From positions 3,676 to 67,675 of the forward strand of contig DAIOVL010000015.1 in assembly GCA_036759025.1 (NCBI GenBank): a DNA stretch of 64,000 nt, read 5' to 3'. The position numbers and the translations under genes were made by a program. Of the stretch, positions 1,139 to 29,188 are shown piece by piece. This stretch comes from Bacteroidales bacterium. Lineage in GTDB: Bacteria > Bacteroidota > Bacteroidia > Bacteroidales > VadinHA17. The notes under the pieces were generated by a model. That model made no database searches. It was not told the origin of the DNA and saw nothing but the letters and a program-made list of their open reading frames with translations. Positions within the stretch are counted from its first letter, which is position 1; each line of letters opens with the position of its first letter.

Positions 1139-1146
1139 ATTACTTA

Positions 1147-4617: not shown

Positions 4618-4653
4618 ATACTTCTAAAAATCGACGTGTGCTGTGCCATCCAG

Positions 4654-6330: not shown

Positions 6331-6382
6331 GCGTGATGATGTATGTTAATATCCGTCGATGCAATGCGGTAGCCGACAGCTT

Positions 6383-7813: not shown

Positions 7814-7927
7814 AATACACAGGTTAATGTTTTACTGTCAGACACACATTAGTAGTATACTATCCGACAGCATACTGTTTTACAATATATTAAGAACTTA
7901 TATAGAAATCACCGGTAAAAAAAGGTT

Positions 7928-8734
7928 CTATTCGGCTTCTTCGTAAACCCTTACATAATCTACATACATTGTCTGAGGGAAGGGTGTGTCGGGAGTCGGG
8001 AATCCTACATAAGATCCGCCTACGGCAACATTCAGGATGAGGAAGAAGGGATGATCATATACCCACTCACCGGGAAGGTCATCAGGATTAATTTCCTGGT
8101 AAAGAATATCATCGACATAGTACCGGATGAAATTTTCAGCCCATTCGACAGCGAAAATATGATAATCCACATCAAACCTGTCGTCAATATAACCGTAGCT
8201 TTTAGTAATTGCAGAACCCCCTGAGTAGCCTGGTCCATGAACGCTTCCGTGGATCAGATTTGGCTGCTGGCCTCTGTATTCCATAATATCAATCTCGCCG
8301 CACTCCGGCCAGGGATTTGTTTCGATATCGGCTCCCAGCATCCAGAAAGCAGGCCAGATACCCGGTCCCCACGGAAGCCTGATCCGTGCTTCAAAACGAC
8401 CGAAAGCCTGGTCGAACTTCCCCTGCGTTTTTATCCTTGCAGAAGTATATGATCCGCCGTTATTTATTGCTGTTATCTTAAGAGCACCATTTTCAACAAC
8501 GATATTCTGTGCATCAGAGGTATAGGTCTGCAACTCTGCATTCCCCCAGCCACCGCCGCCGATGTCGTAAACCCATAAGGAATTGTCGGGAGCTCCATCA
8601 GTATTGAACTCATCCTGCCAGACCAGGGTATAGGTACGGTCTTCGAGAGCTGATTCTTCGCCACATGCCGTTATAAGGGCAAATGTACCCAGAAAGAGTA
8701 TGCTTCTGATGAATATTGGCTTTATTGATCTCAT
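7928..8734 (-). CDS. Glycoside hydrolase family 16 laminarinase (endo-beta-1,3-glucanase), lipoprotein
   Basis: 268-aa ORF with signal plus lipobox LGTFALITAC. GH16 catalytic motif GEIDIMEY (ExDxxE) and WPAFWMLG. Confidence 0.9.
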   Translation of the reverse strand: MRSIKPIFIRSILFLGTFALITACGEESALEDRTYTLVWQDEFNTDGAPDNSLWVYDIGGGGWGNAELQTYTSDAQNIVVENGALKITAINNGGSYTSARIKTQGKFDQAFGRFEARIRLPWGPGIWPAFWMLGADIETNPWPECGEIDIMEYRGQQPNLIHGSVHGPGYSGGSAITKSYGYIDDRFDVDYHIFAVEWAENFIRYYVDDILYQEINPDDLPGEWVYDHPFFLILNVAVGGSYVGFPTPDTPFPQTMYVDYVRVYEEAE

Positions 8735-8835
8735 AGTTTATTGTATTAGGTATTAACTAACTCATTTATTGAAAGAACAAAGCAACTGCAGCCTCTTAAA
8801 CATTGCTGTTTGCCGGGGCTGCAGCCACATCATCA

Positions 8836-11800: not shown

Positions 11801-12762
11801 GGCACATTTGCAAAGGCATTGCTGAAGATTGAGATAACATCTTCAGAGGCATAGGAAGGATCCGGGGCATGGATAAAATCGCCCGATGATACTACAGTCA
11901 TTGAGCCTGTTGCGTCTGTCCCGCCTGATGTGGCAGTTATCTTTGCCGATCCCTGTGCAAGGACATTCACTTTTCCTAATTCATTTACAGCAGCGACATT
12001 TTCATTTGATGAAGCAAAGCTGAACCAGGCGGGGGCGACCTCGAATGACTGATCGATGCCCGTCGGCATATTGAATATAACTTCAAGGCCGCTTAGCTGG
12101 AGGCTAAGTCCGTTTACGGCTGATTCTGTCACGTCGGTGCCACCCAGGATCACAGGTCTTTTATGGGCTATGGTGCCAAGTTTCTCGAACTTAACCTCAT
12201 CAATCCAGAGGGTGTAGCCTGTTCCGTCTTCAGGTCCTTCGGAATAGTAGAACATACCCTTTTCTTCTGTAAGTATTGAGGGGTCAGGGATAGGTATGAT
12301 GTACTTTTTCCAGTTGGAATTAACTTTCATTCCCTTCAGAGAGACAAGGAATTTCGATTCTCCCAGGTCATTTCCAAACCCGACAAGATCTACTGAAGCT
12401 GCTTTGGATGCTTTGGCATAAAAAGTAAGAGCATCATAAGAGCTGAGATCTCTTGCTACAGATGTAAAATATACACCTCCGGCGTAGCTTCCTTCAGGGT
12501 CGCCGGCGTCTGGGATCTCTATCTTCATGGAAGAAGATCCGGAATATTTTGTTTCATTGTCGACATCAAAAGCTGTAACCTTTGATCCGCCGAAAGCTGC
12601 ATAATTGAGCCCCGAGCTGAATCCGTCCATAAAGACCTCAGGTGTTGAAGGAAATTTGGCCAGTTCGAGTTCGTCGAACTCTCTTGTACAGCTCTGCGAC
12701 CATACAAGCATAACTGCTGCAGAAAGAGCAATTAAGGAATATCTATATATTTTCATTTTCAT
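8836..12762 (-). CDS. Multi-module surface glycan-binding lipoprotein (N-terminal CBM-like domain, Big_2 Ig-like domain, six ~165-aa CBM-like modules)
   Basis: The ORF track gives 8836..12924, but that start overlaps the upstream gene. The internal start MKMKIYRYSLIALSAAVMLVWSQSC (ATG at 12762..12760) gives a signal peptide plus lipobox and leaves a 19-nt gap to the upstream stop at 12782. Big_2-like stretch: NENVAAVNELGKVNVLAQGSAKITATSGG. The six modules each begin with a PPAR(D/N)AADV linker and end in YLDN(L/I)YFYK. Confidence 0.6.
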   Translation of the reverse strand: MKMKIYRYSLIALSAAVMLVWSQSCTREFDELELAKFPSTPEVFMDGFSSGLNYAAFGGSKVTAFDVDNETKYSGSSSMKIEIPDAGDPEGSYAGGVYFTSVARDLSSYDALTFYAKASKAASVDLVGFGNDLGESKFLVSLKGMKVNSNWKKYIIPIPDPSILTEEKGMFYYSEGPEDGTGYTLWIDEVKFEKLGTIAHKRPVILGGTDVTESAVNGLSLQLSGLEVIFNMPTGIDQSFEVAPAWFSFASSNENVAAVNELGKVNVLAQGSAKITATSGGTDATGSMTVVSSGDFIHAPDPSYASEDVISIFSNAFANVPVDFYNGYWQPYQTTLSSDFTVNDDDVLYYTNFNFVGIQFTSPTIDASEMTHLHMDVWIPNAVASGDKLSVKVVDMGPDGALDGTDPSISYEIPGPLASQNWISVDMSLASLTSKGKLAQIILENLGTGLSGFYLDNVILYKGGGGPATGPADAAPTPPARDAADVISLYGDAYTNLDGSDYPNWGQATVVSEVQVAGNNTLKFAGLNYQGLQLANAQDVTGMEYLHLDFWTANSTALNVYLISPGPVEKAYALSVPTTGWGSVDIPLTGFSPVDLTDVIQLKWDGNGDIYLDNLYFYTEGGSPVNQPAVPAPVPPARDAADVISLFSNVYTNNTVGTWSADWDDSDVADFQVAGDDIKKYTFTNFAGIDFSSNKINASEMTHFHIDIWTPDEVLSKSLTIKNVDFGGGSAEATNHILTVVHTASGDVPALQTGSWVSVDVPLTAFAGSLTRSDLAQIVLATNLQTVYLDNLYFYKSGGGTTEPTAAAPAPPARDAADVVSVFSEAYTNITGTDFNPNWGQTTVVTTESIAGNSTLKYANFNYQGTAFAAGQDLSGMQYLHIDMWTADATVVKVSPINGSGSPAENLVSLTPITAGQWVSYDIPLTDFTSSGMSLNNVIQMKFDGQAGTTPSTIYLDNIYFYKTGGGATEPTAAAPTPPARDAADVVSVFSEAYTNITGTDFNPNWGQTTVVTTESIAGNSTLKYANFNYQGTAFAAGQDLSGMQYLHIDMWTADATVVKVSPINGSGSPAENLVSLTPITAGQWVSYDIPLTDFTSSGMSLNNVIQMKFDGQAGTNPSTIYLDNIYFYKTGGGSGDDPATPAPIPPARNAADVASFFSNAYTNVTVDTWSAVWDDSDVTDLQISGNDVKKYTFTNFAGIDFSNHKLDLSAMTGFHLDIYVPEDVIPGDVLTIKCVDFGGGAAEATNFILTVVHTVNGSIPALEKGKWISIDLPVTAFAGTLTRSDLAQIVLTCTLDNLYIDNLYFYK
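9361..10362. repeat. In-frame 501-bp tandem duplication (2 copies) inside the glycan-binding lipoprotein gene
   Basis: Hand alignment at an offset of 501 bp shows 9422..9762 identical to 9923..10263 (341 bp with no mismatch). Flanks carry scattered substitutions. The duplication encodes modules 4 and 5, which are 167 aa each and differ at only 2-3 residues. Confidence 0.9.
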
Positions 12763-12781
12763 GTTTTTTCTTTTTATCAGG

Positions 12782-15700
12782 TTACATGCCGATATTGAAA
12801 TGCAAATAAGTTCTGATCTCCCATTCGCTGCCATTCGGGTATCCCGGAACTGTCGGATCACATACATAGTTACCGTTAACGTCGAGAGTCCGGGTCGGAC
12901 AGTAACGTGGGGAGTACTGATCAAGAGATCTTCTGGTGAACCTGAGACCTATCCGGGTTTCAGGCATATCAAACCATTTCGGTTTTGCTACGGCAGTTGA
13001 AAGGTCTATTTTTATCTGGAAGGGGTAGGTAAGGTTAAAGTCGCGGTGATAATCGTATGGACCCCAGTCATTTACCTTTACCATCGTTGATAATTTTGCC
13101 TTCTTATAAACCATCCGCAGGTCTCCGCTGTAACGGTGTATCAATCTTGCATCGCTGCCATTTGATTCAGCTGTACCGGCAAGGAGGTTTGCAATTATCC
13201 CGAAATCAGGTGTTACCTTCGAAACTATCCTGGAATAAGCCTCCCAAAGGTCCCTTGCCGGAGGTGCTCCCGGAAATGCAAATGTTGTTCTTCCGTTTGC
13301 CAGAATTCCTATTGCTGCATCCTGAGTTGTTGGATGATGGCGGTATACGACGCCTGCGCTGATTGCAAAGGGAGCATCTTCTGTCAGGTCATTATCCCAT
13401 TCGTACATCCAGGTTGCAGGAGTAGGATCGTAAGTTAGAAGCAGCTCACCTGCCACTGTTTGTCTGTTTTGTCTTACGGCGAAGGGATCATCAAGAATAT
13501 TTCTTGCCCTTCCGGGTGCCGGTACATCAGAAGGCATGGGGCCGACTATTGGTTTCTGCCATAAGAAGTTGGGTGCAATCTGCAGGTTCCCGAATGTCAG
13601 TGCGAAACCCGTCAGGAAATTAAACTGGTTTCCGCTTCCGCTGTCTTTTAGTCTCCAGCCTGTGAATGTTTTTGTATAATCTGCACCTCCGCCTGCAACA
13701 AGTCCCATTGCAGCTCCCTGTGAATACCACATCAGGGGTCCGGCAGAGAGTGTTAACTTTAATTTACCGCCCCAGGTGTCACTGGAATTGATCTGATCCT
13801 GGTAAACGGTGTAATTTCCGCTTTCTCCTTCCACAAGCTGGAATGTCTCGCCCACACGTGGCTGACCGGCCCAGATACCACCTATTTCCACACCCAGTTT
13901 GCCAAAAGCTCTTTTAATATGCAGGGTTGTTCTTCGTGTGGGAGGTGAAGGAATGGCGAATGAACTTACCGCCGGTGCCTGCTCGTCGAGATCTTCATGG
14001 TAGATCCCGGTGATGTCGAATCCGGCTATGCTGCGGCTGTATTTAACCAGTACTGCCGGGTTGGCTCCCCACCACAGTTCGGGACCGAAAGCCACCTTAA
14101 GACCGCTGAGCGATTTTTTCCCTTCCATTTCCACTCCAAAGGGAGCTTCTCCGTTATATATATCTATATTGGGGCCATAGTTGGCTTCAGGATAAAGCCC
14201 GAAAAAATCCCCTTCATAGCCCCAGTGATAGTGGCCTGTCCTGTAAAAGCTCTTCAGGTTGAAATACTTGCTTTTCCAGGTAAAATCAGATCTGTAGATC
14301 TTCACCCTGTCGATGGATGAAAGTTTAAGGTTGCCCTGGTCAGTATTTACTTCCCTGGTTCTTCCCCTGTTCTCGTAAAATATTTCATCAATAGGATTTT
14401 CTGCAATATGTCCAAGAATATTCACCGACACATTTCCATAAACGCTTTCCGATGGTTTTGCTTCAACATCAATATAATATGACTGCATATGATCGAAACC
14501 AAGTTCATCAGGATAATTCTCTGCCCCTGCAACGGGGTCGGCCGGAGTTGATATCCTGCTGCCACCTGTGCTGTAAGTGCTTAATTCAGCTCTCATCCCG
14601 CTTAACCTGACTATACGTGATTTTTCTCCTGTCATAGCAGCTTTGTCGGCACGGGCTTTAATTACAAGCTCCATGAGACTGATACCTTCAAAATGATCCT
14701 TTATCACTTCAACTGTCGTACCCTCCCTGTAAGGGTTTATACGATGTACATCTTTAAGGGCGTAATATGCAGCTCTGGGGTATAACTCATATAATCCTGA
14801 GGAATTTGTGGGTCCTTTTGCACAGATCCCGAACCACTCCTCGTTCATATTGTTTTCGCCGGGTACATAATCATTCAGGTAACCACCATTGACCCAGGAA
14901 GCGTTATTGTCATGCACATCAAGATTTGAGGTCTGAAGATATTTCCACCATCCGTCACTGAACTGGAATGTGAAACCTCCTATACTGTTGCCTGCCTTAC
15001 CGAGGCCAGCTGCATTTTCATATATCTCCTGCCAGTTACCAAGGAGGTAGTATGCCTGTGACTGCTGATCTTCCTCGTTGGTAACTGCATTGAAAGCATC
15101 TGAACCGAACTCGGTGAACATTATTGGCTTTCCAAGCACTTCCTTAACTCTCTGAAATGCGTCACCGAATGATAAACCACGATACATGTTCACTCCGAAA
15201 ACATCGACATCCTTACACTCTTCGGCTATTATATCCAGAAACAGAAGGTCTCCGTTACACATTGCAACGGGTACAGACCTGTCGATTTTTTTCATCTCAA
15301 GAGCCGCATCATTAAACAGTTTGTACATGGCAATTGCGCGGGTCGTTGATTTCCTGTCTTCTACAGGTATATCTTCCGTCTCAGCTCCTTCCCAGAAAAG
15401 CCCGTAGTTGTTCTCATTTCCAAGAAGGAACATAAGCAAACCCGGAGTTCCCTTAAACTCTTCAACCATCTCCGTGACTTCCTTCAGCAATAACTCCCTC
15501 ACCCTTGGATCGGAGTATTCCGTATTGGCTACCCACTGACTGCCGAGTGTAAGTCCATACCTTCCGAACGAATGGTTCAGAACTGTATAAATACCGTAAT
15601 TCCGGTATATATATTCTATCCATTTGGCCGGAACGCCTGTGTACTGCCTTATTGCATTTACGCCCATATTTTTGAGCATTGACATCTCTGCATCAAGGGC

Positions 15701-15964
15701 AGTCTTAATTAACTCGTCAGATTGTTTCCAGAGGCTGTAGGAGAAATTTGTGCCGATGGGAAAGTAATCCCAGTTCATTCCGTTTATCATGAACTCTTTA
15801 CCGCCGACTGATAATATTATCCCGTCATCACCATCGATGATCTTCACCTCTTGTGATCCGGAAACCTGGTCAGCCCTCACAGAGGTGACCTGAGCCTGTG
15901 TACTCTGAGTAAAAGCTACTAAAGAATACATGGCACAAATAAAAAAGCATGTGATCAGTTTCAT
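12782..15964 (-). CDS. Secreted fusion protein: clan GH-A glycoside hydrolase TIM barrel (GH2/GH5-like) joined to a ~600-aa predicted outer-membrane beta-barrel
   Basis: 1060-aa ORF with Sec signal MKLITCFFICAMYSLVAFTQSTQAQ. The N-terminal half has NAIRQY, FLLGNENNY (Glu184) and IMFTEFGSDAF (Glu285). The C-terminal ~600 aa is a run of short amphipathic Gly/aromatic-rich strands ending in the porin-like WEIRTYLHFNIGM. No TonB box or plug motifs. Confidence 0.55.
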   Translation of the reverse strand: MKLITCFFICAMYSLVAFTQSTQAQVTSVRADQVSGSQEVKIIDGDDGIILSVGGKEFMINGMNWDYFPIGTNFSYSLWKQSDELIKTALDAEMSMLKNMGVNAIRQYTGVPAKWIEYIYRNYGIYTVLNHSFGRYGLTLGSQWVANTEYSDPRVRELLLKEVTEMVEEFKGTPGLLMFLLGNENNYGLFWEGAETEDIPVEDRKSTTRAIAMYKLFNDAALEMKKIDRSVPVAMCNGDLLFLDIIAEECKDVDVFGVNMYRGLSFGDAFQRVKEVLGKPIMFTEFGSDAFNAVTNEEDQQSQAYYLLGNWQEIYENAAGLGKAGNSIGGFTFQFSDGWWKYLQTSNLDVHDNNASWVNGGYLNDYVPGENNMNEEWFGICAKGPTNSSGLYELYPRAAYYALKDVHRINPYREGTTVEVIKDHFEGISLMELVIKARADKAAMTGEKSRIVRLSGMRAELSTYSTGGSRISTPADPVAGAENYPDELGFDHMQSYYIDVEAKPSESVYGNVSVNILGHIAENPIDEIFYENRGRTREVNTDQGNLKLSSIDRVKIYRSDFTWKSKYFNLKSFYRTGHYHWGYEGDFFGLYPEANYGPNIDIYNGEAPFGVEMEGKKSLSGLKVAFGPELWWGANPAVLVKYSRSIAGFDITGIYHEDLDEQAPAVSSFAIPSPPTRRTTLHIKRAFGKLGVEIGGIWAGQPRVGETFQLVEGESGNYTVYQDQINSSDTWGGKLKLTLSAGPLMWYSQGAAMGLVAGGGADYTKTFTGWRLKDSGSGNQFNFLTGFALTFGNLQIAPNFLWQKPIVGPMPSDVPAPGRARNILDDPFAVRQNRQTVAGELLLTYDPTPATWMYEWDNDLTEDAPFAISAGVVYRHHPTTQDAAIGILANGRTTFAFPGAPPARDLWEAYSRIVSKVTPDFGIIANLLAGTAESNGSDARLIHRYSGDLRMVYKKAKLSTMVKVNDWGPYDYHRDFNLTYPFQIKIDLSTAVAKPKWFDMPETRIGLRFTRRSLDQYSPRYCPTRTLDVNGNYVCDPTVPGYPNGSEWEIRTYLHFNIGM

Positions 15965-16222: not shown

Positions 16223-19090
16223 TCAGAAACCAGCCAGGAAAGAGGACAGATTAATTTCTCTGGGAAGGTTCAGTTTCTTACGGAGGCGATAGCGGCTTAC
16301 TTCTGCCCCTCTGTAGGATATGTTTAAGATAGTCGCGATTTCTTTGGTCGGTATGTCCATTTTTATAAAAGCGCAAATCCTGAGATCATAGGGAGTAAGA
16401 TCAGGGAATTTATCTTTCAGCCTTCTGAAAAATTCTTCATTGGCTTCATCAAAATAACTTTCGAAGATCTTGTTCTGTTGCTTAATATCTATTTCTTTGT
16501 TAATCTTTTTCTTAAGGCCTGAAATCTTTGCTCTGGCCTGATCATTGACAACAAAATCCTGTATACCGTACAACTCTTCATGGATCCTTTTCAGAAACTT
16601 ATTCTTTTCGATGATAGCCATGGTCTGATTTGCAAGTTCTTTATCGCGATATACCATTTCCGACCTTAACTTCTCATTCTCAAGATCCAGTATTTTTTTC
16701 TCGGAAAGGAGGGATTGCTGTCTGTGCCTGTATTGCTGTTCCTCCATCTCCCTCCTTAATTTCTCCTTTTCTCTGGCAGCTGCTTTCCCTGCCCGGTACA
16801 GAACATATTGAACTACAGAATAAATAAGAGCTGTAAAAAGAAAGACGTAAATAAACCATGCATACGTTGATCGCCACCAGGGAGCTGATATCTCGAATTT
16901 AAATGAAGCAGGCTCACTTTCCACACCGTAACTGTTCCTGGCCTTAAGTTTAATTTCGTAGCTGCCTTCGCTGAGATTGTTAAAATCCTTATAATTTTCT
17001 GTCGACCAGGCAGACCAGTCTTGGGAGAAGTTTTCCAGGAACCAGCTGAACATCAATGGTCTTTCATTCTCAAAAAATGGTGATGCAAAATAAAAGCGGA
17101 ATGAATTGTTTTTCCAGGGGAATTCATATCCGGTCAGGTGTTCATCACCCCACAGATATAGCGGATAATCAAGATAGTCTGTCTCGACGCGTGTAATATA
17201 AGCGGAGAACTCCCTGTTGTAAAGTTTTGGTACAGAAGGATTATAGTTAACAAAACCTTCTTCTATACCCATAAAAATATTTTCAGTGTCAAAGGGGTAT
17301 ATAAATTCAAATTCATTCACAAATTTGTCTTTGAGTTTTCTCAGGGGCACAGTAACCCTGGTGTAAGTCATATCTTCATTTTTCCTTAAGTAGCCTGATT
17401 CTGATTCAGCAATGAACCAGGTGTAGCCACTGGAGGCTGAGGCAACATATTTGATCTTGCCGGAACTGCCAAATATTTCATTCATCTCCACCGAAGGGAT
17501 GAACCTGACGTCCGAATCATCGTATTTAAATATTCCTTCATCTGTTGAAACAAATATCCTGTTGTCAAATTCAAACAGTATGTTACCTGTGGGCGATGGC
17601 AGACCCGCTTCATCATTAAAACTGATTATTTCCGTAATCTTATCAAAGCTGTCGTTTAATTTCAGCCTGATAATGCCTCTGCCGCTATGGCCAATCCAGA
17701 AAAAGCCTTCCATATCCTGAAAAAGATACCTGCTCGATTCTTCAAAGCCCTTAATTTTTCTGAGGAATGTCCACCGGTCATTTTTATTTTCAAATAAGGC
17801 CAATCCGTTATAATGTCCTCCGATGAGCATTTGGGGATTACCCTTTACCGGGATGAATTTCCATGCACCCTCCAGGCCTGAAATTTTTGAAGCTTTTGTG
17901 CCGTTCACCAGGTATGTGCCATTATGATGACCGCACAGGAGCTGGCCTGCCTGAACTTCCAGGGTCCATACCTGTCCGGCTGTATTATCAACCAACTCAA
18001 ATCCGGATGTACCTGCTTTTTTGTCGAACGGTACTACATATAGCCCCTGGTTCGTTCCCAGATACAAATTACCGTTGAATACCCTGCAACAGTATCCTGT
18101 TCCTATAATATTTGATCCTGTATAAGACAAAGGTGAGTTTATTTCAACATAGTCAATTCCATTATCGAGTCCCAGCCAAAGATTTTCACTATTGTCGACG
18201 AACAGACTCAGGATTGTGTTGTTTTGCAATCCACGCTCTGTATTCAGTGTCTGAAGAATATTCCCGTCTGAATCCGCTATTATCAGACCCCGCAGTATCG
18301 TACCAAAAGCGTAACGGTTATCCGGAAGTCTGACGGCACTATAAAGTCTGGCACTCTTTAATAATTCATTCACAGGCGTTTCCCAACTTTTTACCCGGCC
18401 ATTTTCGAAGATAAAAACACCTTCGTTAGTGGTGCCGACAAGGATCTTTTCATTATCTGATTCAAGTACTGAGTTTATTTCCCTGCCATTTTGTTCCTCC
18501 CACCAGTCAGCTTTTACCAGTTTATTGCCGGCAATTTCATATAATCCGGCTCCGGGCTCATGAACCAGGATTTTATCACTGAGCCTGAAGGAAAAACGGA
18601 AACGGGTCAGGGGTTTAATTACTTCAATGGTATCGTTAGCATAAAGGAATATATAATCATAACACTGGAATATAATTCCATCGCCTGTTTCGTGGATCCT
18701 CCATATCTCATCAAAATCCCTGTATTCTTCGGGAAGCAGGTTTTTCAGGCTGACATACGAAGATGGCTTATCTCCGCTTCGGCTCACGATGCCGAAATCA
18801 TTTATCAATCCTGCACAAATCCTGTTTTTACTGTCGACAAGGATGCTTCTCAGGGGTGATATTGATGATATTTTTGTCAGATTCCATTCTACCCCGTCAA
18901 AAGACAACAAGCCGTCATTATTTGCAAAATGGATGAAGCCTTTGGTGTCCTGACATATCCCCCAATTCTGTGTATCTGCCTTATAATCCGATTTGTGGAA
19001 ATTCCTTATCTGAGGAGTTCCCCTGTACGTTTCCCTGCCAGAAGTTGCAATTGATAAGAAGAGCAGGAATATGGCCAGTATTTTTGACAT
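16223..19090 (-). CDS. Membrane-spanning one-component regulator: periplasmic beta-propeller (Reg_prop) repeats, Y_Y_Y domain, TM helix, coiled coil, LuxR/GerE-type HTH
   Basis: 955-aa ORF with a signal peptide. Y_Y_Y-like region FRFYFASPFFENERPLMFSWFLENFSQDWSAW...GSYEIKLKARNSYG. TM helix YAWFIYVFLFTALIYSVVQYVLY. C-terminal HTH TKEIATILNISYRGAEVSRYRLRKKLNL. No histidine-kinase or receiver motifs. Confidence 0.8.
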   Translation of the reverse strand: MSKILAIFLLFLSIATSGRETYRGTPQIRNFHKSDYKADTQNWGICQDTKGFIHFANNDGLLSFDGVEWNLTKISSISPLRSILVDSKNRICAGLINDFGIVSRSGDKPSSYVSLKNLLPEEYRDFDEIWRIHETGDGIIFQCYDYIFLYANDTIEVIKPLTRFRFSFRLSDKILVHEPGAGLYEIAGNKLVKADWWEEQNGREINSVLESDNEKILVGTTNEGVFIFENGRVKSWETPVNELLKSARLYSAVRLPDNRYAFGTILRGLIIADSDGNILQTLNTERGLQNNTILSLFVDNSENLWLGLDNGIDYVEINSPLSYTGSNIIGTGYCCRVFNGNLYLGTNQGLYVVPFDKKAGTSGFELVDNTAGQVWTLEVQAGQLLCGHHNGTYLVNGTKASKISGLEGAWKFIPVKGNPQMLIGGHYNGLALFENKNDRWTFLRKIKGFEESSRYLFQDMEGFFWIGHSGRGIIRLKLNDSFDKITEIISFNDEAGLPSPTGNILFEFDNRIFVSTDEGIFKYDDSDVRFIPSVEMNEIFGSSGKIKYVASASSGYTWFIAESESGYLRKNEDMTYTRVTVPLRKLKDKFVNEFEFIYPFDTENIFMGIEEGFVNYNPSVPKLYNREFSAYITRVETDYLDYPLYLWGDEHLTGYEFPWKNNSFRFYFASPFFENERPLMFSWFLENFSQDWSAWSTENYKDFNNLSEGSYEIKLKARNSYGVESEPASFKFEISAPWWRSTYAWFIYVFLFTALIYSVVQYVLYRAGKAAAREKEKLRREMEEQQYRHRQQSLLSEKKILDLENEKLRSEMVYRDKELANQTMAIIEKNKFLKRIHEELYGIQDFVVNDQARAKISGLKKKINKEIDIKQQNKIFESYFDEANEEFFRRLKDKFPDLTPYDLRICAFIKMDIPTKEIATILNISYRGAEVSRYRLRKKLNLPREINLSSFLAGF

Positions 19091-20820: not shown

Positions 20821-22059
20821 TTACTCATGTCTTATCGATTCTATCGGTTTCAGATCCGCAGCTCTTTTTGCAGGGAGGTAGCCGAAGGTGATCCCCACAA
20901 GAACGGAAAAGCCGAAAGCGATGAATATTGAATAGAGGGTAAGGCTGGTTTTAACATCAGTAAGGAGTCCTATTCCCAATGAAATAATAATTCCCAGCAC
21001 GACTCCGATTATACCTCCGGTAAGGCTCATGGCAACTGCCTCGGCCACAAACTGACCCATGATATCCGATCTGCGTCCTCCCACAGCTCTTCTTATTCCT
21101 ATCTCCTGGGTCCTCTCAAGAACCGAAGCAAGCATAATATTCATGATGCCTATACCACCGACTATCAGTGAAATAGCTGCAATGGATGCAAGCAGAAGGT
21201 TATATATACGGCTCTCACGTTTTTCCTGTTCCATCAGCTCGTATGGTATAATTATGCTGAAATCATCGTTGTCGAAATGACGTCTCTTAAGGATATTACC
21301 TATTATTTCAGAAGTTGCTACCAGGTTCCCGGAGCTTTCAAGCCTGACTGTCACCTGCTTCAACTCGCTGGCCAGATCGTTGGTTTTCGGTATTCTTTTG
21401 CTGAATGTTGAAAGCGGAATATAGACATCATTGTTAAGGTCGCGTGCTGCAAGCTCACCAATGGTCTCAGTGAACAGAGCCTTTTTCTTCAATACGCCTG
21501 TAACCTCAAACCACTGATCACCCAGCTTAATGTTCTTACCGAGCGGCTCTTCATAATTAAAAAGCTCGTGGGCAATATTTGCGCCCAGGACGCATACCTT
21601 AAGTATCCTGTCGTATTGATCTTCCCTGATGAAAGTACCTTTGTCCATCCTGTAATTAAGTATCTCAGCCATCTCGGGAGTAATACCTATCAGGGTGGCT
21701 TTTGATGATTTATCCTCGAACATAGCATCGAGCTTTGCTTCCGACTGTGGAGCGATTCCCTGCACTCCCGGAACAATTTCACGAATAGCTTTTGTATCGC
21801 CAAGAGATAAGCCCTGTGAAAATTTTGTCCTTACTGTTTCAAGGTCAGCATCTGTCAGATCCTTGTCGCGAATTATAATGTTGCTTACTCCCAGGTCCTG
21901 GTATTTGGCCATTGCCTGTTTCCTGGCTCCGTCTCCTATTGATATCATGGCGATAACGGAAGCTGTTCCGAAAATTATACCGAGCATTGTCAGTAATGAC
22001 CTGAATTTATGGTCGCGAAGGCCATTGATAGCTATTCTGACACTTTCTTCAATCTGCAT
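20821..22059 (-). CDS. MacB/FtsX-type ABC transporter permease (no fused ATPase domain)
   Basis: 412-aa ORF. It has TM1 FRSLLTMLGIIFGTASVIAMISIG, then a large periplasmic insert, then three C-terminal TM helices with the FtsX signature LERTQEIGIRRAVGGRRSDIMGQF. There is no Walker A/B motif. Confidence 0.85.
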   Translation of the reverse strand: MQIEESVRIAINGLRDHKFRSLLTMLGIIFGTASVIAMISIGDGARKQAMAKYQDLGVSNIIIRDKDLTDADLETVRTKFSQGLSLGDTKAIREIVPGVQGIAPQSEAKLDAMFEDKSSKATLIGITPEMAEILNYRMDKGTFIREDQYDRILKVCVLGANIAHELFNYEEPLGKNIKLGDQWFEVTGVLKKKALFTETIGELAARDLNNDVYIPLSTFSKRIPKTNDLASELKQVTVRLESSGNLVATSEIIGNILKRRHFDNDDFSIIIPYELMEQEKRESRIYNLLLASIAAISLIVGGIGIMNIMLASVLERTQEIGIRRAVGGRRSDIMGQFVAEAVAMSLTGGIIGVVLGIIISLGIGLLTDVKTSLTLYSIFIAFGFSVLVGITFGYLPAKRAADLKPIESIRHE

Positions 22060-22069
22060 GATCTGACAA

Positions 22070-23290
22070 TTAATTTGTTAAGATATTCTCAGGCAATACC
22101 AATGACTGGCCCGGACTCAGGTCTCCGGTAACAACTGTATACATATTATTTGAGGGGCCCGGAGACACTTCAGTTTTCCTTATCTTACCCCTCCTCCTGA
22201 CAAAGAGATAATAATGCTTATTTTCCTCAACGATACAGTTATTAGGGACAAAGACTTCATCTGCGCCTTCATAGGTTATATACTCACAGCTTACCGTCAT
22301 GCCCGGCTTAAGCCTGATATCAGATTCTGACAGAAGCACCTCGGCCAGGAAGACTTTTTTCTTATCCATCTCGATACATACCTTGTTTACCCTGCTTATC
22401 TTTCCATGGAAGGGTACGGAGGGCAAAGCATCAAGACGGACAATCACGCCCAAACCCGGCTTTATTTTGCTGATGTCATTCTCAAGGACCATACTGTTTA
22501 CTTTCATGGTGCGAATATCCGGGATCCTTGCTATTGGATAGCCAATATACATTTCATCGCCCAGCTTAACCTGCTGCCCGGTACTTCTGTTCCTTTCAAG
22601 AACGAAAATCCCGTCAAGAGGGCTCAGAATCTTCAGCCTTTCCAGGGTTTCCCTTGCGGCCTTAAGCTCATCCTCTTTCTGCACAACTTTAATCTGTTGA
22701 ATGCGGTAATCAAGACTATCGAGCCTGGGCCGGAGTTCCAGCTTCCTCTTTATTTTATTAAGCCTTATTTCAGATGCCCGGAATTCCAGTTCAATTATTT
22801 TTCTTACACCTTCAGACTCGAAGGCAGAACTATTATATTGCAGCTTCTTTATATCGTAAGCAGCCTGCTCATTTCTCATCTGGGCCCTGAGATCCTGAAG
22901 ATTATTGGTCAGCTGGGCCTTCAGCTTACTGGCGGAAGCCAACTCATTCTCGAGCGATTCACTTTTCTCAATAATATATTTCTCAACAGAAGCCGGATCT
23001 AGTATTACCACGGGTTCACCTTTACGTACCTTCTCCCCGTACCCGGTCAGACCTATTATCTTGAACCTGGATCCGTATACATAGTTGATCCTTGGCATTG
23101 AAACCGTGTATGCATTCACAGCCTCCAGTTCTCCTGTTTCAATAACCGATTGCCTGAATGGACCTTTCATAACCGTGTAAGCGCTCTCCTGTTTCCCATT
23201 GCAGGAAGCAAGGGCAAGACAGTCCACTGTAAGCAAAATAACGCATGTATACTTTGTAAGGATAATTTTAAACAAGCTAACTTTCTTCAT
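22070..23290 (-). CDS. HlyD-family periplasmic adaptor (membrane fusion) lipoprotein, paralog 3
   Basis: 406-aa ORF with lipobox LALASC. Lipoyl-like hairpin GEKVRKGEPVVILD, a long coiled coil (SESLENELASASKLKAQLTNNLQDLRAQ...) and a C-terminal beta-barrel region (LKPGMTVSCEY). Confidence 0.8.
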   Translation of the reverse strand: MKKVSLFKIILTKYTCVILLTVDCLALASCNGKQESAYTVMKGPFRQSVIETGELEAVNAYTVSMPRINYVYGSRFKIIGLTGYGEKVRKGEPVVILDPASVEKYIIEKSESLENELASASKLKAQLTNNLQDLRAQMRNEQAAYDIKKLQYNSSAFESEGVRKIIELEFRASEIRLNKIKRKLELRPRLDSLDYRIQQIKVVQKEDELKAARETLERLKILSPLDGIFVLERNRSTGQQVKLGDEMYIGYPIARIPDIRTMKVNSMVLENDISKIKPGLGVIVRLDALPSVPFHGKISRVNKVCIEMDKKKVFLAEVLLSESDIRLKPGMTVSCEYITYEGADEVFVPNNCIVEENKHYYLFVRRRGKIRKTEVSPGPSNNMYTVVTGDLSPGQSLVLPENILTN

Positions 23291-23314
23291 GTCTTGCTAT
23301 ATAACAGTTATTTA

Positions 23315-24559
23315 TTAAGATCCTTCCCTTAAGCCCTTACCTGCAGCTTTTTTTTCCTTCATTTCTTCCTTTTTCAGGAAGGGATTGGAAAGAGCTATAA
23401 TATCTTCTTCATTCAGACCTTCAGTTATAATGGCAAAATCAATATTGACTGACCCGGTTTTAACTTCCTGCCGTTTAAACCCTGATCCCGACTTCAGGTA
23501 GACATAATTAACATCCTGTTCCCTGAATAGTGATTCCAGGGGGATATAAAGCACATCCGGCACTTCGTTAATAATGATCCTGCAGCTTACTGTAAGCCCG
23601 GGCAGTAGTGTTTTGCTCTGACCATCAATCCTGATCTGAACGGGAAAGATCTTGATCTTCGAATTATAATCTTTCGTCTGTGCCAGGCTGGCAACGGATT
23701 CCACACTGCCATTGTAGACAGAATCTGAATATGCGTCGGGTCTTATTTCAACCCTCTGCCCGGGCAGAACCTTCGCAATGTCGACTTCATTAATATTAAC
23801 TTCAGCCAGCATCTCTGAAAGATCAGGAAGTTCTATTAGCCTTGATCCGGAGTAGGGCTGATCGCCCACTGACCATTTCTGGTTGGTATTCCAGTTTTCT
23901 TCCTTGATAGCAATTCCATTTGCGGGGCTCACAACAAAAAGATTGTTCATGGAATAATTTGCATCTGCCAGAGTAGTTTCCAGCTGCTTGATAGACAAAG
24001 ATTTCTGAAGCAGATCCTCCCTGTTGATAATCTTCTTGTTCTCGATCTGCTCCTGGGCCCTGTTAAGAGCAATTGTAGCAGATTCAAGCCTGAGCTGGAT
24101 CTCTTTTTTTGTGGCATCAGGCTCAAATGCAGATGTCTCAAGGTTGATCTGTGCTATCTCTTTTGATATGCGGGCCGTTTCCAGGTCAGCCTCCAGATCC
24201 TCGATATCTGACTGCTGCGTTGATTTCAGCTTATCATATTCTGCAAGTGCAATCTCAAGCTGCTGTTCAGAAAGGACTATTGATTTTTTAATCTCGGCAG
24301 GATCAAACATTATTATTGTATCCCCTTTCTGAACTTCTTCACCGTCCTCAACAATCTTTGCAATTTTTAATCCTCCGTAACGGGATGAAATTGTCGGCGA
24401 TCCGATAGAAATAGAATTAACAGCTTCGATAGTACCCTGCTCGGTAAGCTCCTCCATAAAGGTACCTCTTCTTACTGCAGTAACCTGTATATCATTGGTA
24501 TCTATCCCTTTGCATGCAACAATGAGCAGCAAAAAGGGCAAAATTAATTTCCTTATCAT
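23315..24559 (-). CDS. HlyD-family periplasmic adaptor lipoprotein, paralog 2
   Basis: 414-aa ORF with lipobox LLIVAC. Same layout as paralog 3: GEEVQKGDTIIMFD, a coiled coil, then LLPGLTVSCRI. Confidence 0.8.
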   Translation of the reverse strand: MIRKLILPFLLLIVACKGIDTNDIQVTAVRRGTFMEELTEQGTIEAVNSISIGSPTISSRYGGLKIAKIVEDGEEVQKGDTIIMFDPAEIKKSIVLSEQQLEIALAEYDKLKSTQQSDIEDLEADLETARISKEIAQINLETSAFEPDATKKEIQLRLESATIALNRAQEQIENKKIINREDLLQKSLSIKQLETTLADANYSMNNLFVVSPANGIAIKEENWNTNQKWSVGDQPYSGSRLIELPDLSEMLAEVNINEVDIAKVLPGQRVEIRPDAYSDSVYNGSVESVASLAQTKDYNSKIKIFPVQIRIDGQSKTLLPGLTVSCRIIINEVPDVLYIPLESLFREQDVNYVYLKSGSGFKRQEVKTGSVNIDFAIITEGLNEEDIIALSNPFLKKEEMKEKKAAGKGLREGS

Positions 24560-24572
24560 ATGAAAGAATGAA

Positions 24573-25865
24573 TTATTTCAAATCTGGCATCTTAGTTTTA
24601 TTCTTTATAATGTTCTTATGTGAGATCAGGTTGTAAGGAGGTTCAACGAGAGCAATGATCTCGTCACCTTCCAGTCCACCTGTAATAATTGTATAGGAGC
24701 TTCCTGTAGTACCTGTTTCCACATTGACGGGGACGTAATTTTTAGATCTTTTGACGTATACCACCCTGCTGCTGTCTTTTTCAAAAACAGCAACTGAAGG
24801 AATGAAGAGAGTATCAGCAGCTTCGCTTAGAATTATCTCACAGTCTGCGCTCAGTCCGGGCTTGATCTTTGAATGACAGCTGTCGATATCAATAATGATC
24901 TCATAAGATTTTACTTTTGAACGGGAGTATCTCTGTGCCATGCTCTGAGCAAGACTTTTCCTGTTCACCCTGCCGGTTGTAAGAAGTTTTCCGGCAGCAT
25001 CAACAGTGATAAAGACCTTCTGCCCACGTTCTATCTTTTTGAAATCAGCCTCTGCCGCGCTTGCCGATATCTGCATGCGGCTAAGGTCGGGGAATTGCAG
25101 TACAGGACTGCCGCCAAAAAACGACATAAGCACACTACCTTCCTTTATCGGTCCGCCGAATGATCCTGAGCCAGTAGATGACATGACCATAACTGTCGGG
25201 GCTTCAACCCTTTGGACAATACCATCTCTCTGTGCAATCAGGGTAAGGGAATTTAGCTCATTAAGATAATTACTGGTACGGGCCTCTTCCTGTATAATTC
25301 TTGTTTTCATCTGCCTGATCCCTGTTTCAGCAATTTTCCTGGCAGCTTCAAGCTTCTTTTCTGCCTTTTGCTTTTCAATCAATGCTTTTTTCATCTCCAG
25401 TTCAAGAAGTTTCTTCCCGGTTTCTGTCGCGAATTGCATCTGAAGTGAATCGAGAGAAGATATTTTAACCTGGGCCTCGCTTGTGGCAACCTGCGACTCG
25501 AGAAGTGCTATGTTGAACCGGTTATCTGCCTCAGCTGATTTCAGCTCTGCAGCAAGTTTTTCAAGAGAGGTCACCTGCAACCTGTAGGCTGTTTCAAGCT
25601 CAGCTGACTCCAGGACACATATTGTGTCGCCTTTTTTTACAATGGCTCCATCCCTGGCAAGCCTGACTACTGTAAAGGAACCACCGGTGGCAGACCGCGG
25701 AGCCATTACCGGAGTGCTTGTCACTGCCTGGACAGTCCCGGGAATATTAATTGTCTCAGTATAGTCTGCCCTGCTCAGCCTGTAGGTCAGTAAATCGTCC
25801 CTGTTGCCGGTACAACCCATAAGGAGGATAACCATAAAACAGGTGACAAATGTGAGGGGCTTCAT
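24573..25865 (-). CDS. HlyD-family periplasmic adaptor lipoprotein, paralog 1
   Basis: 430-aa ORF with lipobox ILLMGC. Same layout again: GAIVKKGDTICVLE, a coiled coil, then IKPGLSADCEI. Confidence 0.8.
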   Translation of the reverse strand: MKPLTFVTCFMVILLMGCTGNRDDLLTYRLSRADYTETINIPGTVQAVTSTPVMAPRSATGGSFTVVRLARDGAIVKKGDTICVLESAELETAYRLQVTSLEKLAAELKSAEADNRFNIALLESQVATSEAQVKISSLDSLQMQFATETGKKLLELEMKKALIEKQKAEKKLEAARKIAETGIRQMKTRIIQEEARTSNYLNELNSLTLIAQRDGIVQRVEAPTVMVMSSTGSGSFGGPIKEGSVLMSFFGGSPVLQFPDLSRMQISASAAEADFKKIERGQKVFITVDAAGKLLTTGRVNRKSLAQSMAQRYSRSKVKSYEIIIDIDSCHSKIKPGLSADCEIILSEAADTLFIPSVAVFEKDSSRVVYVKRSKNYVPVNVETGTTGSSYTIITGGLEGDEIIALVEPPYNLISHKNIIKNKTKMPDLK

Positions 25866-25986
25866 CGGTAAAGATACAGAATTGTAAAATTAAACTAAAA
25901 ATGTAGTTTATACAAGAAATTATTGTGAATTATTTCACACCCTGATTTTACAAACTTACTGGTATGGGTCTGAAAGCAGAAAATGT

Positions 25987-26877: not shown

Positions 26878-27279
26878 ATGGCACTTGCCCGTTTTGGTGT
26901 GAGCATGGATGAAGAAATCCTTAAAGCCCTGGATGCCTTTGTAATTGAAAATAAACTCTCTAATCGTTCACAGGCTATCCGGCATCTTGTGGAAAAGAAC
27001 CTGGCAGAGAAAAAATGGAAGTGTAACCAGACAGTTGCAGGTGCTGTGGTTATGCTATACGACCATCATAGGGGCGAGATAACCACACGATCGAATGACA
27101 TTCAGCATAATTATCATGATGTTATACTTTCTTCGCAGCATTTTCATCTCGATAATGATAATTGCCTTGAGATAGTTGCGGTAAAAGGAGAAGCAAAAAG
27201 GCTGACAGAATTATCAGACAAGTTGATCGGCATCAAGGGGATAATTCACGGGAAACTTGTAATGAGCCGGGCCGACTGA
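26878..27279 (+). CDS. nikR: Nickel-responsive transcriptional regulator NikR
   Basis: 133-aa ORF. It has a ribbon-helix-helix N-terminus (ARFGVSMDEEILKALDAFV...NRSQAIRHLV) and a metal-binding C-domain that aligns with E. coli NikR (YDHHRGEI, QHNYHDV, HFHLDNDNCLEIVAVKG, GIIHGKL). Confidence 0.9.
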   Translation: MALARFGVSMDEEILKALDAFVIENKLSNRSQAIRHLVEKNLAEKKWKCNQTVAGAVVMLYDHHRGEITTRSNDIQHNYHDVILSSQHFHLDNDNCLEIVAVKGEAKRLTELSDKLIGIKGIIHGKLVMSRAD

Positions 27280-27340
27280 TTTTTTTTAAATGTCCGGTAA
27301 CACGTAATTATTATTCGTATCACTATATCGATATTCACAC

Positions 27341-29188
27341 ATGAAAAAAAGGCACCTTTTAGTTTTCATAACTGCTTTGATCCTGACTAATTATGGATTC
27401 TCCCAGGAAAATCATAGTATTTTAAATGACACCATTAACATTAATGAAGTTGTAATCACGGGTTCCAGGACATACGTTAACCGTAATAATGTTCCGTTGA
27501 CAGTATCAGTAGTATCGAAAGATAAGATTGAATTAAGCTCTGAATCAGCATTGTTACCGGTATTGTCGGAACAGGTACCGGGTCTTTTTGTCACAGAAAG
27601 GGGGATTACAGGTTTCGGTGTAGCCACAGGTTCTGCAGGGCATATAATGCTGAGAGGCATAGGTGGTAATCCCAATACCCGGGTTCTCATGCTGGTCGAT
27701 GGAAATCCTCAGTTTATGGGTATCATGGGGCACCCATTACCTGACACATATATTGCTTCAGATGTAGAAAAGGTTGAGGTGATAAGGGGACCTGCCTCGA
27801 CACTTTACGGGACAAATGCAATGGGTGGCGTAATCAATATTATTACAAAGGAGCAAAAAGAAGACGGATTCATGGGAAATGGCCGTATAATGTATGGTTC
27901 TTACAATACTCAAAAATATATGGTAAATGCGGGTTTCAGGAAGAAGGGTTTCAATGTTATTGCGTCTTTTAATCACGACCAGACAAAGGGTCACAGGGAT
28001 TCATCTGATTTTAGGATCAATAACGGGTATCTCAAAGCGGGTTATGAATTCAGCAGATACTTTAAGATGGAAGGAAATATTAGCCTGGCGAACTTCGATG
28101 CCACCGATCCCGGACAAGAAGGAGGATTTGCAGGCTATACATATGACATCACCCGTGGAATGAGTGCCCTCGTCTTCGACAATAAGTTTGATAAAACAAA
28201 CGGCTCCTTCAGATTCTTTTACAACTTCGGTGAGCATAACATCACCGACGGATTTCACTCAAAAGACAAAAACTACGGAATAGTTGTTTTCCAGGCATTT
28301 AATTTTTTCAGGGGAAATACTATAACATTTGGATACGATTACAAGAAATACGGCGGATTTGCCGAGAACGTTCTTGCAATGGGTGGAAATGGGATGGTAC
28401 TGGGTGATACGACTGTTTTTGAAATGGCCGCTTATGCATACATCCAGCAGGAATTATTCAGTAAGATTACATTAAATGCGGGCTTCAGGCTGGAACATAA
28501 CAACATATACGGTTATGAACCTGTACCAACAGGCGGAGTGGCATACCGGCCAACAGCCTCTACAACAATAAAGGCTTCTGTCTCTAAAGGATTCAGAAGT
28601 CCGACTATCCGCGAACTTTATCTTTTTACCCCTGCAAATGCCAGTCTGAAACCGGAAAGAATGATGGATTATGAGATCAGTATTTTGCAAAAATTACTTA
28701 TGAATAAAATTTCACTTGAACTTACCTTATATAAGGCTAATGGTGATAACCTGATACAAACGGTGATGACCGCGACCGGACCATTAAATGAAAATACGGG
28801 GGAATTCTCGAATACAGGTGTGGAATTTACCGGTTCCTTCAAACCGACTGACAAACTTACATTTAATGCAACCTGCAGTTATATTTCAATGAAAGAACTG
28901 ATCGTGGCTGCTCCTGAACAACAATTAAATCTCAGTGGAAGCTATAAACTGAAGAGGCTTAATTTTAACCTTTCCCTCCAGCATATTCATAATCTCTGCA
29001 CACAAATCTCACCATCGACATTGAAAGAAAGTTATACCCTCTTCAATTCGAGGATCTCCTGGAACATCAATAAGTCCATCGATATTTTTATCAAAGGTGA
29101 GAACCTGACCAACAGGAAATATTCCATTAACTACGGCTACCCGATGCCCGGTATTATTTTCTTCGGAGGAATAAACCTTCATCTATAA
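27341..29188 (+). CDS. TonB-dependent outer-membrane receptor (small, 615 aa; likely Ni/Co or other metal-complex uptake)
   Basis: Signal peptide. Plug-type motifs INEVVITGSR and RGPASTLYGTNAMGGVINIITK. Long beta-barrel ending GIIFFGGINLHL. It sits 61 bp downstream of nikR on the same strand. Confidence 0.85.
   Translation: MKKRHLLVFITALILTNYGFSQENHSILNDTININEVVITGSRTYVNRNNVPLTVSVVSKDKIELSSESALLPVLSEQVPGLFVTERGITGFGVATGSAGHIMLRGIGGNPNTRVLMLVDGNPQFMGIMGHPLPDTYIASDVEKVEVIRGPASTLYGTNAMGGVINIITKEQKEDGFMGNGRIMYGSYNTQKYMVNAGFRKKGFNVIASFNHDQTKGHRDSSDFRINNGYLKAGYEFSRYFKMEGNISLANFDATDPGQEGGFAGYTYDITRGMSALVFDNKFDKTNGSFRFFYNFGEHNITDGFHSKDKNYGIVVFQAFNFFRGNTITFGYDYKKYGGFAENVLAMGGNGMVLGDTTVFEMAAYAYIQQELFSKITLNAGFRLEHNNIYGYEPVPTGGVAYRPTASTTIKASVSKGFRSPTIRELYLFTPANASLKPERMMDYEISILQKLLMNKISLELTLYKANGDNLIQTVMTATGPLNENTGEFSNTGVEFTGSFKPTDKLTFNATCSYISMKELIVAAPEQQLNLSGSYKLKRLNFNLSLQHIHNLCTQISPSTLKESYTLFNSRISWNINKSIDIFIKGENLTNRKYSINYGYPMPGIIFFGGINLHL

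Follow-up and report, generated by a model that had tools for sequence, protein, structure and literature searches.

How can a transport operon work that encodes three diverged adaptor proteins and one permease, and neither an ATPase to drive the permease nor an outer-membrane channel? The question is raised by four minus-strand genes in a 64-kb stretch of DNA (hereafter the window) from a Bacteroidales metagenome-assembled genome (MAG). An earlier note on this DNA had offered two answers: a hetero-oligomeric adaptor ring served by an ATPase encoded in trans, or a use of the MacB/FtsX fold outside the ATP-binding cassette (ABC) mechanism. The first fits all the findings presented here and explains them best, while the second is disfavoured. 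We regard it as probable that these genes represent the conserved core of a pump of the MacAB-TolC type, with an eroded operon, an ATPase and channel supplied in trans, and a mixed adaptor ring. On comparative grounds, the likeliest system would be an ordinary ATP-driven pump that borrows an ATPase and a channel encoded elsewhere in the genome. The genes, as called from their open reading frames (ORFs), are as follows (aa, amino acids).

24573-25865, minus strand: adaptor A gene, 430 aa
23315-24559, minus strand: adaptor B gene, 414 aa
22070-23290, minus strand: adaptor C gene, 406 aa
20821-22059, minus strand: MacB-type (type VII ABC) permease gene, 412 aa

The description in the earlier note of a four-gene minus-strand operon with gaps of 10-24 bp, made up of three lipobox-bearing adaptors and one permease, proved exact in its ORF coordinates and lipoboxes. 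From A to B to C to the permease the genes are spaced by 13, 24 and 10 bp; the lipoboxes ILLMGC, LLIVAC and LALASC are present, and an alignment shows the lipobox cysteine column to be kept in all three orthologue groups. The assignment of the products to HlyD-type adaptors and a MacB/FtsX permease is likewise borne out by matches in Pfam, NCBIfam and the PDB. HlyD_D23 is matched by A, B and C, and HlyD_3 by B and C; the NCBIfam model RND_mfp is matched by all three, above the model's cut-off for C only (98 bits). In the PDB, adaptor C matched the MacA structures 4DK0, 4DK1, 5NIK and 3FPP, which together span its residues 38-400. Pairwise identity among A, B and C is 25-29%. The permease is a single MacB_PCD plus FtsX unit (Pfam matches at 1.1e-36 and 3.4e-18, respectively) with four transmembrane (TM) helices, a large periplasmic core domain between TM1 and TM2, and no nucleotide-binding domain (NBD). 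It aligned to residues 254-647 of the MacB equivalog NF007826, which is the portion past the NBD, and matched MacB structure 5LIL over its full length (E=4e-57), as well as 5NIK and 5GKO, also over the full length. An assembly artefact is ruled out, as six independent assemblies of this organism all have the identical four-gene arrangement.

What this cassette is can be seen from its relatives. One genome per GTDB species was scanned, which gave 66 loci in which ORFs were called and matched to A, B, C and the permease; lineages were counted after identical permease sequences had been removed. The order A-B-C-permease is kept in every locus with enough sequence, in about 55 species-level lineages of Bacteroidales-like bacteria, so that, by the synteny check proposed in the earlier note, the cassette is not peculiar to this DNA. 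Each adaptor best matches its own type, with A always first, B second and C third. Homologues of the permease number in the thousands; the ones that are 81-86% identical are found on long contigs, preceded by these three adaptors but otherwise amid wholly different neighbours, and the genes next to the cassette vary from lineage to lineage. A constant cassette amid different neighbours indicates that the four genes are a mobile, or at least an autonomous, conserved module. The operon exists in three states: six genes, A-B-C-permease-ATPase-channel (24 lineages); five genes, with the channel gene and without the ATPase gene (6 lineages); and four genes (about 25 lineages, the window included, where all four ORFs are intact). 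The six-gene carriers, among them Prolixibacteraceae, Mariniphaga and Paludibacter, have permeases at most 72% identical to that of the window, and permease identity among species of the four-gene clade is 75-86%. The extra genes of the six-gene carriers lie on the same strand with short gaps and encode an ATPase of about 230 aa, followed by a TolC-family outer-membrane channel (OEP, PF02321) of about 497 aa. This ATPase is of the canonical MacB/LolD type, with Walker A, Q-loop, LSGGQ, Walker B and H-loop all intact. The full system is thus a six-gene MacAB-TolC-type operon with three adaptors.

Of greater interest in this system are the three adaptors. The trio has not been cut to one or two in any of the approximately 55 lineages, and no member has been dropped or duplicated. 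A scan of metagenomes with the cassette ATPase gave matches that were mostly generic NBDs, 52-63% identical. It yielded nothing for the genome of the window but served as a baseline for such architectures; 72 of the 80 generic MacB-type loci carried zero or one adaptor-like ORF, in agreement with the statement of the earlier note that one adaptor species is the norm. Our literature searches for three-adaptor MacB systems found no description of one, and in two reviews, of 2021 and 2026, TriA/TriB, of a resistance-nodulation-division (RND) pump, is the only example named of multiple adaptor types (PMC8277102, PMC13328181). The alpha-helical hairpin region has an invariant length of 113 residues throughout the 145 adaptors that were aligned (47 A, 51 B and 47 C), while consensus identity across the hairpin is only 0.21-0.30 between adaptor types and conservation within the three types is 0.59, 0.77 and 0.69. 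Adaptor B is the best conserved of the three (within-type conservation of 0.69-0.79 per domain). Adaptor A is the most divergent and has an extra stretch of about 11-14 aa, absent from B and C, following the C-terminal half of its lipoyl domain; its hairpin was located in an AlphaFold2 model built from a three-sequence alignment (pLDDT, the model's per-residue confidence).

25233-25607, minus strand: alpha-helical hairpin of adaptor A, residues 87-211; modelled helices 87-142 and 148-211, pLDDT 80-92

The adaptors also differ in which of them keep the membrane-proximal domain. In the Paludibacter clade it is only adaptor C that lacks the C-terminal ~70 residues that make up this domain; it ends right after the beta-barrel, at about 331 aa (L051:8998-9993, L054:8988-9989, L058:8971-9963 and L059:2836-3834), with its hairpin unchanged and with A and B at full length. 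A second, distant three-adaptor architecture, in the order ATPase-H1-H2-H3-permease, was found in marine/TARA metagenome contigs (L161:6001-11100, L166:6001-11101, L168 and L173; L174 has the same start and ends at the contig edge). Here H1 and H2 (325-344 aa) end after the beta-barrel and the membrane-proximal domain is found only in H3 (~400 aa). Mapping of these adaptors onto A, B and C with profile hidden Markov models gave no clear one-to-one correspondence, and the triplication behind the marine architecture would be either very old or independent.

The known pump contains two MacB, six MacA and three TolC subunits (PMC5985334). Two MacB to six MacA leaves three adaptor positions per permease protomer, and a ring of composition (ABC)2 would match the two-fold symmetry of the transporter. 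If a homo-hexamer were built from adaptors that lack the membrane-proximal domain, the canonical ring that docks on the permease would be missing, whereas a mixed ring needs that domain at some positions only. The trio that is never reduced, the 113-residue hairpin region, the strong conservation within each type, the insertion peculiar to A and the selective loss of one domain together point, indirectly, to co-assembly over alternative rings. Most likely, judging from these comparisons, the three adaptors would form one mixed (ABC)2 hexamer, with one paralogue for each non-equivalent position around a MacB protomer. The more specific proposition, that the (ABC)2 ring is obligate with paralogues specialised by position, and that the NBD is interchangeable enough to allow repeated loss of its gene, we consider evenly poised between true and false.

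The best surviving alternative is that the three adaptors replace one another, each forming a separate homo-hexamer on the one permease and so giving pump variants for different substrates, channels or conditions. Homo-hexameric MacA is the sole experimentally established arrangement for MacB-type pumps (PMC5985334), and old paralogues diverged to 25-29% identity are what functional specialisation would give. Equal hairpin length would also be required when all three dock on the same channel. However, adaptors used in turn would sit poorly with a fixed gene order from which no adaptor was dropped or duplicated in about 55 lineages, and with genes that are tightly spaced or overlapping, suggesting equimolar co-expression. 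The membrane-proximal domain is also absent from the Paludibacter-clade C and from two of the three marine adaptors, and a homo-ring of these would have no canonical docking ring. We therefore hold alternative homo-hexamers to be unlikely, and the mixed ring remains the preferred reading of the trio.

We turn to the missing genes. As the earlier note had stated, no Walker motif is present in the permease and neither an NBD nor a TolC-like protein is co-encoded; motif, tblastn and Pfam scans of the 64-kb window were all negative. Neither a Walker A nor an LSGGQ motif occurs in any of the four cassette proteins, and a six-frame search of the window for ORFs with Walker A followed by LSGGQ gave none. 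No match in it came from tblastn with the cognate ATPase and channel, a Pfam scan of its ORFs of at least 150 aa gave no ABC_tran and no OEP domain, and no remnants of an ATPase pseudogene were seen 3' of the permease. Relocated copies were sought as well. L037 is the nearest lineage to retain the ATPase gene, and its protein served as query in a homologue search. None of the six homologues that were traced (P0134, P0206, P0197, P0131, P0132 and P0235) is a stand-alone gene or comes from the window's assemblies; they all lie in six-gene cassette operons or in the parts of such operons visible on the contig. A search for a relocated channel gene with the channel protein of L065 led to P0260, P0258 and P0308, all within five-gene operons. 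If the dedicated genes were lost rather than moved, a paralogue from some other system would have to stand in as the ATPase, and another outer-membrane factor would be needed.

How the genes disappeared can be read from a neighbour-joining tree of the concatenated adaptors and permease (1646 columns, 100 bootstraps). Operons without the ATPase gene occupy three separate positions, with support of 95-100. The first holds the five-gene operon of L065 together with its sister, the four-gene clade that includes the window (support 100); the second is L073 and the third the group of L036, L090, L093 and L094. A clade of ATPase-linked Prolixibacteraceae is nested between the second and the third (support 97 and 100). 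Because the tree is that of the operon itself, the count of events is unaffected by horizontal transfer. The ATPase gene has undergone at least three gains or losses, for which three clean deletions are the simplest account. Since the sister L065 still has the channel gene, the lineage of the window lost the ATPase gene first and the channel gene later. No ATPase remnants were found in the permease-channel gaps (40-200 bp) of the ATPase-less loci. The 124-bp gap of one of them (L073:11240-11362) holds about nine tandem copies of the heptamers GGTACAG and GGTGCAG, followed by a GC-rich hairpin and a run of T; the array may mark the scar of a deletion or be a repeat element that was inserted. 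Stepwise erosion of the operon accounts for the missing ATPase and TolC genes of the window, whose absence does not in itself argue for a new mechanism.

The genes that remain are under selection. Pairwise Nei-Gojobori estimates of dN/dS (the ratio of nonsynonymous to synonymous substitution rates), which are approximate because dS is about 1.5 and near saturation, were 0.146 in the four-gene clade and 0.119 in the six-gene clade for adaptor A, 0.086 and 0.060 for B, 0.110 and 0.104 for C, and 0.047 and 0.038 for the permease. All four genes are clearly constrained and under strong purifying selection, and the four-gene version appears to remain functional. Of particular interest are the parts of the permease by which an ATPase would be held. 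The cytoplasmic elements of MacB on which the NBD docks, the major and minor coupling helices, are defined in PMC5985334, and both were found in the permease of the window.

21049-21126, minus strand: major coupling helix region, permease residues 312-337, SVLERTQEIGIRRAVGGRRSDIMGQF, between TM2 and TM3; placed by alignment to 5LIL and by PMC5985334; putative ATPase docking site
20821-20865, minus strand: minor coupling helix, the C-terminal permease residues 399-412, RAADLKPIESIRHE, with the stop codon; role according to PMC5985334

Conservation of the major coupling helix is 0.91 in ATPase-less lineages against 0.85 in ATPase-linked ones, and that of the minor helix 0.96 against 0.82. The core ERTxEIGIRRA is found in nearly every sequence of either kind, in the window as ERTQEIGIRRA. 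That these helices are not relaxed where the cis ATPase is missing argues that a cytoplasmic NBD still docks there. Just past the major helix, all ATPase-less lineages carry G-G-[RK]-[RK]-S-D-I-M (permease residues 328-335, ~21055-21078, minus strand). At the serine position the residue in ATPase-linked neighbours is K, R, I, T or V, and the ATPase-linked Paludibacter clade also has serine. We had entertained this serine as a convergent adaptation to a new NBD and dropped the idea, because the Paludibacter clade shares it and it is possibly ancestral.

These data also bear on the second answer of the earlier note, namely that the MacB fold is used here without an ATPase, as a passive scaffold or conduit across the envelope or with some other driving force. 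In its favour, the operon has lost its ATPase gene at least three times separately with the remaining genes still under selection, no relocated dedicated ATPase appeared among the six traced homologues, and the motif shared by the ATPase-less lineages could reflect a changed cytoplasmic partner. Against it, a fully canonical ATPase is encoded both in the ancestral operon and in the sister operons. The earlier note had named a dedicated ATPase/TolC pair consistently linked to the cassette in other genomes as the observation that would refute its reading, and in about 24 related lineages the cassette is followed directly by a dedicated ATPase gene and a TolC-family gene. Where the operon lacks the ATPase gene, conservation of the NBD-docking helices shows no relaxation (0.91 and 0.96, as above). 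Further, MacB works by ATP-driven mechanotransmission and its fold offers no pathway through the membrane (PMC5985334), and orphan MacB-type permeases occur in related genomes, which makes supply in trans the simpler account. An ATPase-independent cassette is accordingly improbable in our judgement.

It is barely credible that the six-gene operon is decaying in the window's lineage and has left a cassette without function. Such decay would fit the loss of two of the six ancestral genes and the frameshifts in cassette genes at several related loci (L014, L043, L067, L071 and L074). However, about 25 four-gene lineages, the window included, have all four ORFs intact, with dN/dS at 0.05-0.15 and permeases 75-86% identical, and the frameshifted copies all come from one series of MAGs, with locus-wide breaks that fit sequencing error. 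At L014, L043, L064, L067, L068, L071 and L074 the cassette genes are split into many short ORFs, with frame breaks throughout the loci. All of these loci belong to MAGs with MFD isolate names, which from the naming we take to be of long-read origin, and breaks across the whole locus point to indel errors over pseudogenisation.

The favoured reading, an eroded MacAB-TolC-type pump with a mixed adaptor ring, can then be put as a sequence of steps. The ancestral operon would have encoded adaptors A, B and C, the MacB-type permease, the MacB/LolD-type ATPase and the TolC-family channel. In the window's lineage the ATPase gene would have been cleanly deleted first and the channel gene later, leaving four genes that still function. 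A dimer of the permease would dock an ATPase encoded in trans through the conserved coupling helices, and ATP-driven mechanotransmission would move the periplasmic domains and expel a periplasmic or outer-leaflet substrate. The substrate would pass through the adaptor tube into an outer-membrane channel that is also encoded elsewhere, with A, B and C filling three non-equivalent positions of the six around the two-fold symmetric MacB dimer.

Several points weigh against this reading. No partner ATPase or channel gene has been located for the window's organism, for which the direct search covered the 64-kb window, and all traced homologues of the ATPase (6 of 6) and of the channel (3 of 3) lie inside cassettes, so that the dedicated genes appear to have been lost and not moved. 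The argument for a hetero-hexamer is comparative from end to end, and the equal hairpin length on which it draws would be needed just as much if three separate homo-hexamers shared one channel. The single-chain AlphaFold2 model of adaptor A is of moderate quality outside the hairpin (pLDDT 61.6), its confident parts being the hairpin and some of the barrel. The near-saturation of dS, given above with the ratios, belongs here as well.

Comparison with known systems places the cassette closest to MacAB-TolC (Escherichia coli, A. actinomycetemcomitans, A. baumannii). The two share the permease fold of four TM helices and a periplasmic core, MacA-like adaptors and conserved coupling helices, and the sister operons of the cassette encode an ATPase and a TolC-family channel. 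However, MacAB-TolC has one MacA where the cassette has three diverged paralogues; its adaptor is anchored by a TM helix, whereas those of the cassette are lipoproteins; and the NBD of the cassette system is a separate polypeptide in the sister operons and is absent from the operon of the window. The E. coli tolC gene is unlinked to macAB, and the channel gene need not be linked; the earlier note had made too much of the missing outer-membrane factor, for which adjacency is not the norm. The cassette is best filed as a MacAB-TolC variant, apparently undescribed, with three adaptors that are lipoproteins, an NBD split off as a separate gene and, in the window, an operon that has been eroded.

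The nearest parallel for the adaptors is TriABC-OpmH of Pseudomonas aeruginosa, which likewise has tandem paralogous adaptors in one operon, presumably at non-equivalent positions of one hexamer. Its transporter is a trimeric, proton-driven RND protein with two positions per protomer and two adaptors, whereas the cassette has a MacB/FtsX-type transporter, proposed to be a dimer, with three positions and three adaptors. Split MacB-like systems with a separate NBD, permease and MacA-like adaptor are also known: LitOPAI, Spr0693-0695, YknXYZ and DevBCA (PMC11559062). The cassette resembles them in its match to PDB entry 5XU1 and in precomputed Pfam labels of its adaptors, which are of the YknX-type beta-barrel and YknX_C. 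All of these systems, from Legionella (LitOPAI), Streptococcus pneumoniae (Spr0693-0695), Bacillus (YknXYZ) and cyanobacteria (DevBCA), have a single adaptor species and a linked ATPase, unlike the cassette. Nor is the cassette a DevBCA system, as its adaptors score 20, 41 and 27 bits with the DevB family TIGR02971 against a cut-off of 129. It is no member of LolCDE or FtsEX either; the permease scores 32 bits with lolCE against 362 and 20 with FtsX_actino against 250, and the cassette has adaptors.

ADOP permeases (TIGR03434) resemble the cassette in being encoded without an adjacent ATPase gene. They consist of a duplicated permease, about 800 aa long, and have no adaptors of their own, whereas the permease of the cassette is a single unit of 412 aa that scores 109 bits against 622. 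The 'O' of the name stands for 'orphan'. Two adjacent ADOP-like permeases of 782 and 799 aa, each with the domain order MacB_PCD-FtsX-MacB_PCD-FtsX, lie 6.5 kb from the cassette in a related genome (L007:17782-21239; L012 is the same), with no ATPase nearby. Such orphans offer a local precedent for supply of the ATPase in trans. Together with TIGR03434, the two in L007 also show that the earlier note went too far in calling a fused or adjacent ATPase obligatory.

Tripartite pumps must fit a hexameric adaptor ring to transporters of differing symmetry. TriAB illustrates that a trimeric RND pump can divide the two positions per protomer between two paralogues. If the (ABC)2 ring is real, it would be the first three-adaptor tripartite pump and the counterpart of TriA/TriB for a transporter of two-fold symmetry. 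Each of the three adaptor positions would then be genetically labelled, and MacA contact, MacB activation and TolC opening could become testable position by position. The graded retention of the membrane-proximal domain, in three, two or one of the three adaptors, suggests which positions matter for contact with the permease. The recurrent clean loss of the cis ATPase suggests that NBDs may be shared among MacB-type (type VII ABC) permeases, which matters when the numerous orphan FtsX/MacB permeases of Bacteroidota are annotated.

The flanks of the cassette are as the earlier note had given them. Upstream, a GDSL esterase gene lies on the same strand, 121 bp before adaptor A; downstream, a convergent tetratricopeptide repeat (TPR) gene lies 100 bp from the permease. 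The upstream gap holds one candidate promoter.

25951-25958, minus strand: TAAGTTTG, candidate operon promoter, matching the Bacteroidetes -7 consensus TAnnTTTG, inside the 121-bp gap 5' of adaptor A

The TAnnTTTG motif is not enriched across the window, and TAAGTTTG is a consensus match only. The gene 5' of the cassette varies among relatives, which is consistent with a promoter of its own. Scans of the window for sigma-70 promoters and intrinsic terminators gave counts not clearly above the shuffled expectation, with models that omit Bacteroidetes promoters.

The pump cassette lies in the middle of the window, with no evident functional link to the polysaccharide genes around it. Positions 254-15964 and 30406-60212 are mostly devoted to polysaccharide degradation, with glycoside hydrolases (GH) of families GH17, GH30, GH16, GH43, GH106 and GH92 and a GH2-like type, several apiosidase-like/DUF5060 proteins, and sugar transporters of the major facilitator superfamily. 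At 16223-19090 there is a Y_Y_Y/Reg_prop regulator with a weak match to a LuxR-type (GerE) helix-turn-helix. On the other side of the cassette (26878-29188), a NikR-family nickel-responsive repressor of 133 aa lies directly 5' of, and co-oriented with, a TonB-dependent receptor of 615 aa; the pair, which is divergent from the esterase and pump genes, probably serves nickel-regulated uptake of metal.

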